From assembly GCF_054482525.1 (NCBI RefSeq), contig NZ_CM137006.1: a DNA stretch of 64,000 nt; one strand, given 5' to 3'. Numbering within the stretch: position 1 is the stretch's first letter; the number at the start of each line of letters is the position of its first letter. Below the pieces are notes generated by a model. It was not told the DNA's origin, searched no databases, and saw only the letters and a list, made by a program, of their open reading frames with translations. Below, piece by piece: positions 8,330 through 12,207 of this stretch. The position numbers and the translations under genes were made by a program.

Positions 8330-10591
8330 TTACATCTGACGGTTTTTATTGAAGTTAATCAAACTACCCGCCTTGATAATCTCGCGCTCTTCAGCAGTCA
8401 GACTTTCCATATAGAGCGTAATTTCCGTTACCGGCGCATCTTCATGGATCACATAACCTTTAAACGTCGTACCCGGATTATCCAGCGCCGCTTTAATGCC
8501 AGGGATGTAAATGTAATCCCCCACTTCAAACGTTGGTGCTTCCGCCATTTGCAGCGGTAACATCCCCCAGTTGATGACGTTAGAACGGTAGCGTTTAGTC
8601 GCGTATTCCTCGGCAATATTCGCCAGACCGCCAATCACACGCTGGCAGCTCGCCGCCTGCTCACGCGCAGAACCATCGCCTGGTTTCACCGCATAGACCA
8701 TGCTGCCAATTTCAGTTTGCAGCGGATCAATATGCTCCTGACCAGCAATCTGCTTAATGCGCGCAAACACCTCTGTCAGCTCGCTGACATTCCCCGCCAG
8801 ACGCTGATTTTCCAGTTCAGCAGTCGCTTTACTTCTGCCAACATAACCTGGATCGCGGCGTGACAGGGTAAACTCCGCCAGACCAATCGGATTTGAACGA
8901 TAAGAAGAGGTTTCACCGGAAGGAATCAGTTCGTCGGTGGTGGTGACTTCGTCGAGGATCTTCGAGCACACTTTGAGGACGATATTGTCAGTCAGCGCAC
9001 CCAATTCCGGCCAGTCTTTAATGTTCGGTCCGTAAATCAGCGGTTGCTGGGTCGCCCCTTTCACAAAGCCCTGATAAACACGGTTTTTATACGGCGTTAC
9101 ATCGAAGGCGTACTCCGGCACGTTGTCCCAGCAATCGAGTTCGCTGGCAGAGGTTAAATAGCCACCGTTTGCCGCAGTCGCAGCGATAGAACGAGCGTCC
9201 ATCAACGCCACCGCTGACATCTGCCCATTGGCTGGCTTAGAGCCTTCGCGGTTCGGGAAGTTACGCGTGGTGTGGCGAATACTCAAACCGTTGTTGATTG
9301 GCGTATCGCCCGCGCCAAAGCATGGGCCGCAGAACGCGGTTCTGATGATTGCGCCTGCGCCAATCAAATCTGCTACCACACCTTTTTTGGCTAAATCCAT
9401 AAACACCGGCTGTGATGACGGATAAACCGCCAGCGAGAAGGTGTCATTGCCACAGGATTGACCGCGCAGTGCATTCGCCGCCGCGATGACGTTTTCGTAG
9501 TTACCGCCAGAACAGCCCGCGATAATCCCCTGCTGCACTTTCAGGCGACCATTTTCAACTTTATCCAGCAGCGAGAGTTTGGCTTTACCGTGCGCCACGC
9601 GTTCGGACTCAATTTCAATCTCACGCAGAATGTCGGTCAGGTTCTGGTTTAGCGTGTCGATTTCATACACGTTGCTCGGGTGGAACGGCAGCGCAATCAT
9701 TGGTTTGATGGCGCTTAAATCAACGCTGATGCAGCCATCGTAGTACGCCATCGGTTGAGGGTTAAGCTGGCAGTAATCCTGACCGCGACCGTGCAGCGCC
9801 AGCCAGTTATGGACTTCTTCATCGGTTTGCCAGACAGAACTTAAACAGGTCGTTTCAGTGGTCATAACATCAACGCTGTTACGGAAATCGGTAGAGAGCG
9901 CAGCAACACCGGGACCTACGAATTCCATCACTTTGTTTTTGACGTAGCCGTTTTTGAACACGGCACCGATGATAGCCAGCGCCACATCCTGTGGCCCCAC
10001 ATACGGCGCAGGTTTTCCGGTCAGATGCACCGCAACCACGCCCGGATAGTCGATATCCCAGGTGTCATTAAGCAGCTGTTTTACCAACTCACCGCCACCC
10101 TCACCGACTGCCATTGTCCCTAATGCACCGTAACGGGTGTGGCTGTCTGACCCGAGGATCATTTTGCCGCCGCCTGCCATCATCTCACGCATATATTGAT
10201 GGATGACCGCAATATGCGGAGGCACAAAAATACCGCCATAACGCTGCGCTGCCGATAAACCAAAAACATGGTCATCACCGTTAATGGTGCCGCCGACGGC
10301 GCAGAGTGAGTTATGGCAGTTGGTCAGCACATACGGCAGCGGGAAACGTTCCATACCGGACGCTTTAGCGGTCTGTACAATACCAACAAAGGTAATATCG
10401 TGAGAGGCTAATGAATCAAACTTAATTTTAAGTTTATCCATATTTCCGGACGTATTATGAGAAGAGAGAATAGACCAGGCAATAGTGCCTTTTTTTGCTT
10501 CTTCTTTTTTAATTTCGCCGGTGAAATGTTCTTCGGCAATTATTTCGTTATTACTGGCGAGAAACACGCCTTTTTCAGATAACTTGATCAT
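8330..10591 (-). CDS. ybhJ: Aconitase-family putative hydratase
   Basis: ORF 8330..10615 (761 aa); start [17 protein letters not shown] at 10591 gives 753 aa; aconitase-like Cys/Gly-rich motifs. Confidence 0.88.
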
Positions 10592-10654
10592 CAAATGCTC
10601 CAGATATCTGCGCACCGGAAAGTGCGCAGAAAGATAATAAATGGATATACTCTA

Positions 10655-10770
10655 AATAATTCGAGTTGAAGGAAGGCGACAAGCGAGTGAATCCCCAGGA
10701 GCTTACATAAGTAAGTGACTGGGGTGAGCGAACGCAGACGCAGCACATGCAACTTGAAGTATGACGAGTA
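10655..10770. repeat. ERIC (enterobacterial repetitive intergenic consensus / IRU) element
   Basis: Contains gtgaatccccaggagcttacataagtaagtgactggggtgagcg, the conserved ERIC core (the ERIC1R/ERIC2 primer sites). Confidence 0.8.
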
Positions 10771-10773
10771 TAT

Positions 10774-12207
10774 TTACAGCATGTTCCAGCCGATCAGCAT
10801 ATTCCACCACCACACGCCGAGGGTGATATGCACCAGGAAGGTTAATATCGTCAGTACCGCACCGACCAACCACCAGGATTTAATATCGTTGTAACCCACG
10901 CCAAAGATGACCGGACCTGCCGCGCCGCCATAGTGAGTAACCATGCCGCCATAGGAGTTAGAGAACAACAGTGCCAGCGCGGTTAACATTAACGGTGCGC
11001 CGGAGACGTTCGCCAGCATGGCAAATACCGGTAACATGGCAACGATATAGGCACTACCGGAAGCGAAGAAATAACGCACGATAATGCTGAGGAAAATAAT
11101 AACGAAGAAAGCAACGTTACCGTGACCATCAAATGCCAGGTTATTTTTAAAGACTTCAGCTAACCATTCGAAGAATTTAACTTTCGATAATAAGGAGCTT
11201 AAGCCGATAATACCGCCGTACCAGATTAAGGTATTCCAGCCGCCTTTATTTTTAACCACGTCTTCCCAGGTAACGATACCCAGCAGCAGCATAGTCGCCA
11301 TAACAACGATTGCCACGGTGGATTCATCAACCCCCAGTGACTTACTGAAAATCCAGCCCAGCAGCGCCAGCACGAAGACACCGAGCAGCATTTTTTCGCG
11401 GATTTTCATCGGTCCCAGTTCGGCAAGGCCCGCTTTGGCGATGGTTTTGTTATCCACCTTCTTAATTTCTGGCGGATACATGGTGTAAATCACCAGCGGG
11501 GTGACCAGCAGCATAATGATACCCGGCAATCCGGCGGCCAGCGCCCATCCACCCCAGCTAATTTGCAGGTGCAGAATGTCGTTGATCATTTTCAGCGCCA
11601 GAATGTTCCCCGCCATTGCGGTAAAGAACATATAGCTGGTGGTTTTGGTGACCATGTAAATGGACATCATCAGGTAATGTCCGACACGACGCGGGCTTTT
11701 TTCAGGTTCTGACCCCAAAGCCACCGCCACGCTGTTGATGATCGGTAACACAATGCCGCCCGCACGCGCGGTGTTAGACGGTGTTGCCGGAGCCAGTACC
11801 AGATCGAGGAATACCGTAACGTAACCCAGACCCAGCGTGGTGTTACCGATTTTACCAATCAGCAGATAGGCTATACGTTTACCTAAGCCGGTGGTCACAA
11901 ATGCGGCGCTTAAGGTGAACGCCGAGAACACCAGCCAGGTGGTACCTGAAGAGTAACCGCTTAATACGGCGGTGGTCTTAAACGCACCGTCGGATAAGTT
12001 ACCGACCACCACCATTGAGGCAGCAACGGCAATTAACAGTACGACAGGTTCCGGGAAAGGCTTGATAACCAGCCCCACAATGGCCGCCAGGTAAATACCA
12101 AAAAGCACCCACGCCAGTTCGCTTAATCCTGCCGGAGCTGGCATAAAGCCAATAATACATGGGATCGCTAATATCAGAATTAGCTTCCATAACGATTTTT
12201 TATTCAT
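10774..12207 (-). CDS. ybhI: Anion transporter, DASS/ArsB-like permease superfamily
   Basis: 477 aa highly hydrophobic ORF MNKKSLWKLILILAIPCIIGF... Confidence 0.88.
   Translation of the reverse strand: MNKKSLWKLILILAIPCIIGFMPAPAGLSELAWVLFGIYLAAIVGLVIKPFPEPVVLLIAVAASMVVVGNLSDGAFKTTAVLSGYSSGTTWLVFSAFTLSAAFVTTGLGKRIAYLLIGKIGNTTLGLGYVTVFLDLVLAPATPSNTARAGGIVLPIINSVAVALGSEPEKSPRRVGHYLMMSIYMVTKTTSYMFFTAMAGNILALKMINDILHLQISWGGWALAAGLPGIIMLLVTPLVIYTMYPPEIKKVDNKTIAKAGLAELGPMKIREKMLLGVFVLALLGWIFSKSLGVDESTVAIVVMATMLLLGIVTWEDVVKNKGGWNTLIWYGGIIGLSSLLSKVKFFEWLAEVFKNNLAFDGHGNVAFFVIIFLSIIVRYFFASGSAYIVAMLPVFAMLANVSGAPLMLTALALLFSNSYGGMVTHYGGAAGPVIFGVGYNDIKSWWLVGAVLTILTFLVHITLGVWWWNMLIGWNML

Follow-up and report, generated by a model that had tools for sequence, protein, structure and literature searches.

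A full-length ERIC/IRU element between ybhI and ybhJ of Escherichia coli and its possible effect on mRNA stability

Introduction

The co-oriented genes ybhI and ybhJ of E. coli are separated by an unusually long spacer, in which the RefSeq annotation of matching genomes contains no feature. This raises the questions of what fills the spacer, how it arrived there, and whether it matters for the genes on either side. A sequence-only reading had proposed a copy of the ERIC/IRU repeat, a ~127-bp non-autonomous MITE of enterobacteria. The window analysed here is the whole stretch of 64,000 nucleotides (NZ_CM137006.1), and all coordinates refer to it unless an accession or locus is given. The element is of an ordinary kind, known since 1990-91, and its importance beyond annotation is slight. 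Marking it does, however, explain the length of a spacer that RefSeq leaves unannotated.

Gene context of the spacer

On the minus strand the gene order is ybhH (13335-12283), ybhI (12207-10774) and ybhJ (10591-8330), all co-oriented and with short gaps, while the LysR gene ybhD is divergent from ybhHIJ. The names ybhI and ybhJ are taken from the RefSeq annotation of genomes that match at 98.5-100%. The window is 100% identical to E. coli PCN033 over 801 nt and ~98.5% identical to K-12, in which the same ERIC copy is present. Published surveys count 19-21 ERIC copies in K-12 (PMC2267715).

The spacer extends over 182 bp from the ybhI stop codon to the ybhJ ATG, in place of the 180 bp originally given, and the ERIC fills most of it. 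Beyond the ERIC, the mRNA would continue with an A/U-rich stretch of 15 nt, an 8-bp hairpin, the GGAG of ybhJ, and its ATG. The features of the spacer are as follows.

10774..10776, minus strand: ybhI stop codon TAA, which abuts the element with 0 nt between
10645..10773, plus strand: full-length ERIC/IRU including ATAT at both ends (consensus alignment, hairpin, multicopy distribution, sub-threshold V_AS5 match)
10770..10773, no strand: ATAT, second target copy (comparison of filled and empty sites)
10750..10773, no strand: terminal inverted repeat arm by ybhI, the 5' arm in the mRNA, beginning immediately after the ybhI UAA
10709..10730, plus strand: ERIC2 primer site (AAGTAAGTGACTGGGGTGAGCG), exact match
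10693..10724, no strand: central conserved stem-loop, CCCCAG ... CTGGGG (folding and alignment of copies)
10687..10708, minus strand: ERIC1R primer site (ATGTAAGCTCCTGGGGATTCAC), exact match
10645..10668, no strand: terminal inverted repeat arm by ybhJ, the 3' arm in the mRNA (CAACUCGAAUUAUUUAGAGUAUAU, 75% A+U)
10645..10648, no strand: ATAT, one target copy (empty sites read TAA-ATAT-CC)
10608..10629, minus strand: separate 8-bp hairpin CUGCGCAC-N6-GUGCGCAG, between the ERIC and the ybhJ ribosome-binding site and not part of the ERIC
10589..10601, minus strand: ybhJ Shine-Dalgarno sequence GGAG (10601-10598) and ATG (10591-10589)

Scanning the coding strand of the spacer for promoters and terminators returned no sigma-70-like promoter and no intrinsic-terminator-like site. 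The idea that the ERIC supplies a promoter for ybhJ was rejected on the basis of this empty promoter scan.

Identity of the element

Positions 10645-10773 form a canonical full-length ERIC/IRU element (ATATACTCTAAATAATTCGAGTTG...CAACTTGAAGTATGACGAGTATAT), an assignment that we regard as practically certain. The ERIC1R and ERIC2 primer sites each occur once in the 64-kb window, and 100 shuffled sequences yielded no match to them even with 3 mismatches permitted. Against the consensus sequences of Delihas 2007 (PMC2759123, Table 1a), the element aligns gap-free over 127 nt with both the E. coli RU-1/ERIC consensus (112/127, 88.2%) and Salmonella SeRU-1 (118/127, 92.9%). In sub-type the copy thus resembles Salmonella SeRU-1 (93%) more closely than it does the majority consensus of E. 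coli (88%). The plus strand has the classical (Hulton / Wilson-Sharp) consensus orientation, and the ybhI-ybhJ mRNA, read from the minus strand, would bear the reverse complement, 5'-AUAUACUCGUCAUACUUCAAG....

The copy has in common with the ERIC/IRU family its length, full-length sequence, primer sites, terminal inverted repeats and long hairpin, along with a TA/ATAT target duplication, an intergenic place beside a gene end, and a multicopy distribution. No essential difference from the family was found; the element is a member of it, with every testable defining feature present. The sequence-only reading is thus borne out on the presence of an ERIC/IRU copy, on which primer sites, alignment, hairpin, copy number and covariation agree, and on both classical primer sites. 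It had named the lack of a match to the consensus as grounds for refutation, and the gap-free alignments at 88-93% identity answer this point. Its limits of 10655-10770 had the location right but fell short of the true extent of 10645-10773 with the ATAT repeats, which lies ~10 nt wider on the left.

Rfam contains no ERIC family, and a scan at a permissive threshold gave sub-threshold matches throughout (V_AS5 and Ysr283). The Vibrio antisense RNA V_AS5 (RF02818) matches the element end to end, including the long stem, with 40.1 bits and E = 1.5e-6. Membership of V_AS5 was rejected as this score is far under the gathering score of 96. The sub-threshold match is consistent with the ~80-97 ERIC copies reported in V. 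cholerae, where Vibrio elements are described as shorter with eroded terminal repeats (PMC2267715). The absence of an Rfam family does mean that no curated model backs the assignment, and it could be argued that the element is a chance palindrome or belongs to another repeat family such as REP/BIME or RIP/Box. The exact primer sites, consensus alignment, multiple copies, a paralogue between cusC and cusF, and compensatory pairing all speak against this. The alignments already refute such a reading, to which we assign next to no probability. REP/BIME hairpins such as that between malE and malF do resemble the element in being intercistronic structured repeats with a possible influence on how stable the mRNA segments are. 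They nonetheless belong to another sequence family, measure ~35 bp vs 127 bp, and have other associated proteins, and no REP-like sequence is present at the ybhI-ybhJ site.

Insertion footprint

Empty versions of the site were found in E. coli GF4-3, in 'E. coli' SCPM-O-B-8794 (locus L005) and in Escherichia sp. MOD1-EC7003 (locus L006), and these read ...CTG TAA ATAT CC.... Filled sites read TAA ATAT-ACTC...GAGT-ATAT CC..., a net gain of 125 bp with duplication of TA or ATAT; the palindromic ends of the element leave it ambiguous which of the two was duplicated. From the comparison, the element inserted at an ATAT directly after the ybhI stop codon (0 nt between), lengthening the spacer from 57 to 182 bp. 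A TA-containing target duplication is the MITE-type signature described for ERICs in reviews. The ATAT target and the 125-bp net gain thus form the footprint expected for a miniature transposable element.

Distribution at the ybhI-ybhJ site

The filled junction was found in 5328 of 5426 complete E. coli genomes, with at least 80% of the query covered in one contiguous place. The ERIC accounts for 32% of this 401-nt query. Searched by itself, the ybhI 3' end was found in 5336 E. coli genomes and the ybhJ 5' end in 5350, and the remaining genomes, BLR(DE3) for example, are without the locus altogether. An empty junction was sought with a query of 30+30 nt and an E-value cut-off that excludes half-matches. 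In megablast and blastn alike, it was found among the 5426 genomes only in GF4-3, a strain from guinea fowl.

NZ_CP053258.1, ~1428823-1428881: empty site of E. coli GF4-3 (locus L003)

Among loci retrieved with YbhI as the query, at one genome per species, E. coli E69, E. albertii NBRC 107761 and E. whittamii have the ERIC at the site. Empty sites occur in SCPM-O-B-8794, in MOD1-EC7003, in all nine Citrobacter loci fetched (9/9) and in Edwardsiella hoshinae, and no ERIC match was found at the locus in the other relatives examined in this set. The ERIC between ybhI and ybhJ is hence nearly fixed in E. coli, and whether the site is filled differs only from one Escherichia species or lineage to another. 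ERIC insertions had been put forward as variable among strains, with a comparison of this region across E. coli genomes suggested as the check. Such variation is described for ERICs in general (review PMC10969869), but the comparison contradicts it for this site, which is filled in 5328 genomes when the ybhI 3' end is found in 5336, and empty in one. Owing to this near fixation the element is no strain-typing marker in E. coli.

The ybhI-ybhJ spacer of Intestinirhabdus alba (locus L011, 5435-5631) is 197 bp long, G+C-rich and unlike ERIC in sequence. It may hold another insertion at the same intercistronic position.

Structure of the hairpin and of its neighbour

In the mRNA sense (minus strand) the element is predicted to fold into one long imperfect hairpin, with a minimum free energy of -38.6 kcal/mol (z -5.1). 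The plus strand gives -48.7 kcal/mol (z -7.4), so the element folds less stably in the mRNA sense. The 3' arm contains 75% A+U in the mRNA sense vs 67% in the other orientation. In addition, one stem pair is disrupted by a G>T change private to the window's own copy.

RNAalifold analysis of 27 copies from distinct sites recovered the long hairpin, with compensatory double changes in 16 of 34 pairs. Pair 7-125, for instance, occurs as C-G (17 copies), U-A (6) or A-U (4). The centre of this alignment is uninformative, being fixed by the 23-nt core pattern used for the search.

The smaller hairpin beyond the ERIC is a separate structure. In the window it reads CUGCGCAC-UUUCCG-GUGCGCAG and is located 6 nt ahead of the Shine-Dalgarno sequence of ybhJ. 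It is found in empty and filled sites alike and thus predates the ERIC insertion. Across Escherichia the stem does not change, in contrast to the loop (TTTCCG, TTCACG, TTTACG, TTAACG). The spacers of Citrobacter have a hairpin of other sequence at the same distance from GGAG, with compensatory changes in 5 of 9 pairs (RNAalifold). This small hairpin may act as a 5' stabiliser or a processing signal for ybhJ.

Other copies in E. coli and metagenomes

With the ybhI-ybhJ copy as the query, E. coli genomes contain a median of 11 ERIC places and a maximum of 20. Scanning of metagenome contigs with the 23-nt core gave 120 loci, representing ~29 distinct sites. The diversity statistics below use a set from which anomalous sequences were removed.

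The closest paralogue lies between cusC and cusF of E. coli BLR(DE3) (locus L054, 3001-3128) and is 99% identical to the ybhI-ybhJ copy over 128 nt. Although it occupies a different locus, it also sits inside an operon in the same orientation relative to the genes, 4-5 nt past the cusC stop codon. Near-identical copies occur at at least five further metagenome sites (L067, L090, L118, L135 and L140). Together with the cusC-cusF copy, this suggests a sub-family that is either young or homogenised.

In several of the metagenome contigs (loci L055-L174), the ybhI flank is joined with the far flank of another ERIC site, or vice versa. Chimeric assembly across the ERIC repeat is the most likely cause, and such contigs call for caution since assemblies can fuse unrelated loci across such repeats.

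History of the ERIC segment

The ERIC of E. albertii is identical to the E. coli majority sequence at the site over its full length (129/129). In the adjacent 450 nt each of ybhI and ybhJ, 79 of 300 third codon positions differ between the two species (26%; Fisher P ~2e-14 vs the ERIC), and the differences closest to the element are located 18 nt upstream and 27 nt downstream. This identity is relevant to the long-standing question of what keeps ERIC sequences so conserved, and may be due to strong constraint, introgression or re-insertion. It had at one point been held that locus-specific substitutions prove orthology with E. albertii; this argument was dropped in view of the 99%-identical cusC-cusF paralogue.

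Within E. coli (19 sequences) the ERIC has 6 segregating sites in 129 and a pi of 0.011 vs 0.026-0.041 at third positions, ~2.5-4 times lower. This reduction amounts to mild constraint at most. In an HKA-like contrast of polymorphic sites to those fixed against E. albertii, the ERIC gives 6:0 and third positions 37:79 (Fisher P = 0.0015), for which simple constraint alone is an insufficient explanation. The contrast suggests that the cross-species ancestor of the ERIC segment is more recent than that of its flanks. A possible though rather unlikely account is that a young, near-identical ERIC sub-family spread recently between Escherichia species. The route would be either homologous recombination over very short tracts or insertion at the same ATAT more than once. 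Members of this sub-family occur at cusC-cusF too, and at other sites adjacent to stop codons. If such recent spread were true, mobility or exchange of ERICs in Escherichia would be ongoing and not ancient.

The empty allele of GF4-3 indicates how exchange can take place at this site. A tract of ~116 nt (-60 to +55) is identical to the ERIC-free locus of SCPM-O-B-8794, including shared SNPs at -40, +6 and +9, and the wider flanks are K-12-like. Short-tract allelic replacement therefore does occur between ybhI and ybhJ. Precise excision was considered as the origin of this empty site and judged less likely because of the three linked SNPs.

The orthologous ERIC of E. whittamii (locus L020, 5435-5563) has three or four clustered differences, GCTCC to GTGAC, by which the central stem-loop becomes a perfect palindrome. 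Such a cluster would be expected of hairpin-templated (template-switch) mutation rather than of independent substitutions.

Possible role in mRNA stability and alternative explanations

The most likely role of the element is that of an intercistronic RNA hairpin affecting the relative stability of ybhI and ybhJ mRNA. We advance this tentatively, and consider a measurable effect to have somewhat less than an even chance; the joint proposition of ERIC identity and this mechanism is likewise held to be a little short of an even chance. The ERIC is probably transcribed within a ybhHIJ or ybhIJ mRNA, given the co-oriented genes, the short gaps, and a spacer free of promoter-like and terminator-like sites. 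Once transcribed, it would fold into one long imperfect hairpin. As the 5' arm begins at the ybhI stop codon, ribosomes terminating at the UAA would melt the base of the stem. Melting would bare the A/U-rich 3' arm (GAAUUAUUUAGAGUAUAU) to putative cleavage by RNase E. Cleavage in this arm would destabilise the upstream ybhI segment, and the downstream ybhJ segment would retain the small conserved 5' hairpin ahead of its ribosome-binding site.

This model is the one proposed for stop-adjacent ERICs in Yersinia, where De Gregorio et al. (2005) reportedly studied the 'B-oriented' ERICs of Yersinia enterocolitica. Like those elements, the ybhI-ybhJ ERIC abuts a stop codon between co-oriented genes and, in the mRNA, carries the A/U-rich arm at its 3' side. 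The resemblance is one of geometry. Reviews, including PMC10969869, describe Yersinia ERICs as co-transcribed with their neighbours and the upstream transcripts as having lower stability than the downstream transcripts. The remark in the sequence-only reading that ERICs can affect the mRNA stability of flanking genes goes back to this work in Yersinia. The sense orientation of the ybhI-ybhJ mRNA would be that of the ERICs that Delihas 2007 (PMC2759123) found attached to Erwinia gene 3' ends, TATAC(C/T)CGTCAT..., so that a 'B' orientation is assigned to this copy only indirectly. One paper found ybhH strongly up-regulated in a ybhD mutant, and its authors suggest that ybhI is de-repressed too; ybhJ was handled separately. 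This report is compatible with uncoupling across the spacer but is no evidence for the model.

Several observations count against a role. The element is dispensable, as SCPM-O-B-8794, MOD1-EC7003, Citrobacter and GF4-3 keep the gene order and the small hairpin without it. The mRNA-sense fold is the weaker one, and the window copy's private change breaks a pair in it. ERIC diversity is just ~2.5-4 times under that of third positions. Nor is there a clear bias in orientation, as stop-adjacent ERICs among the ~29 metagenome sites number ~6 in the same orientation vs 4 in the opposite one, in a small sample with crude ORF calls.

A rival view is that the ERIC is a neutral relic, a fixed and no longer mobile insertion without meaningful effect on ybhI or ybhJ expression, whose high similarity between lineages reflects recent origin and spread by recombination rather than function. 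To this we give nearly an even chance. The ERIC-free lineages, the just moderately lowered diversity within species, the more recent cross-species ancestor suggested by the HKA-like contrast, the short-tract replacement in GF4-3, and the recent spread suggested by near-identical copies at cusC-cusF and other sites are all in its favour. It is harder to reconcile with the compensatory changes that keep the hairpin paired across copies, with near fixation in more than 5300 genomes, and with the functional effects that reviews report for Yersinia ERICs. The absence of any difference from E. albertii in 129 positions would also need a recombination tract of at most 172 nt, given how close the flanking differences lie. 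Partial termination after ybhI, with the hairpin and the U-rich CCAUUUAUUAUCUUU that follows it acting as an attenuator and ybhHI and ybhJ forming separate units, is improbable. A tract with 9 U in 12 nt does come after the hairpin in the mRNA, and the paper mentioned above treats ybhHI as a cluster apart from ybhJ. The terminator scan of 10592-10773 on the minus strand was empty, however, the stem base is A/U-rich and imperfect, unlike that of intrinsic terminators, and the U-rich tract is already present in empty sites and so predates the insertion. The scan also gave no promoter-like site from which ybhJ could be transcribed downstream.

Translation through the element, coupling ybhJ to ybhI, is the least probable of these effects on expression and in our judgement very improbable. 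The frame after the ybhI TAA (10591-10776, minus strand) runs on for 60 open codons, across the ERIC and the spacer, up to a TGA overlapping the ATG of ybhJ (ATTTGATG). A TTG-started ORF of 53 aa (10752-10591) lies in the same frame, and either of these could be what is translated. ERICs in the mRNA-sense orientation are known to carry open frames (PMC2759123), which fits such a reading but equally makes the openness an intrinsic property of the element. The 17 extra open codons in the spacer would arise by chance with a probability of roughly 0.4 by our estimate, no Shine-Dalgarno sequence is seen upstream of the TTG or GTG starts, and lineages with empty sites keep ybhJ without the frame. 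Given the known openness of ERICs in the mRNA-sense orientation, the frame past the ybhI stop codon is probably incidental. The mRNA-stability role could be approached through the empty allele of GF4-3 and the ERIC-free sister lineages, which are natural controls for the effect of a stop-adjacent ERIC on a downstream operon gene.

Other observations in the window

Two further matches lie outside the spacer on the plus strand. Antisense to the ybhI coding sequence (11491-11742), Rfam gives a sub-threshold match to the Yersinia sRNA Ysr283, with 41 bits vs a gathering score of 58 and E = 2.5e-9; this probably reflects conservation of the coding sequence, not an sRNA gene in the window. Inside ybhJ, on its antisense strand (10477-10500), a terminator-like hairpin is followed by a T-run (AGGCAATAGTGCCT TTTTTTGCTT), as a match to the consensus only.
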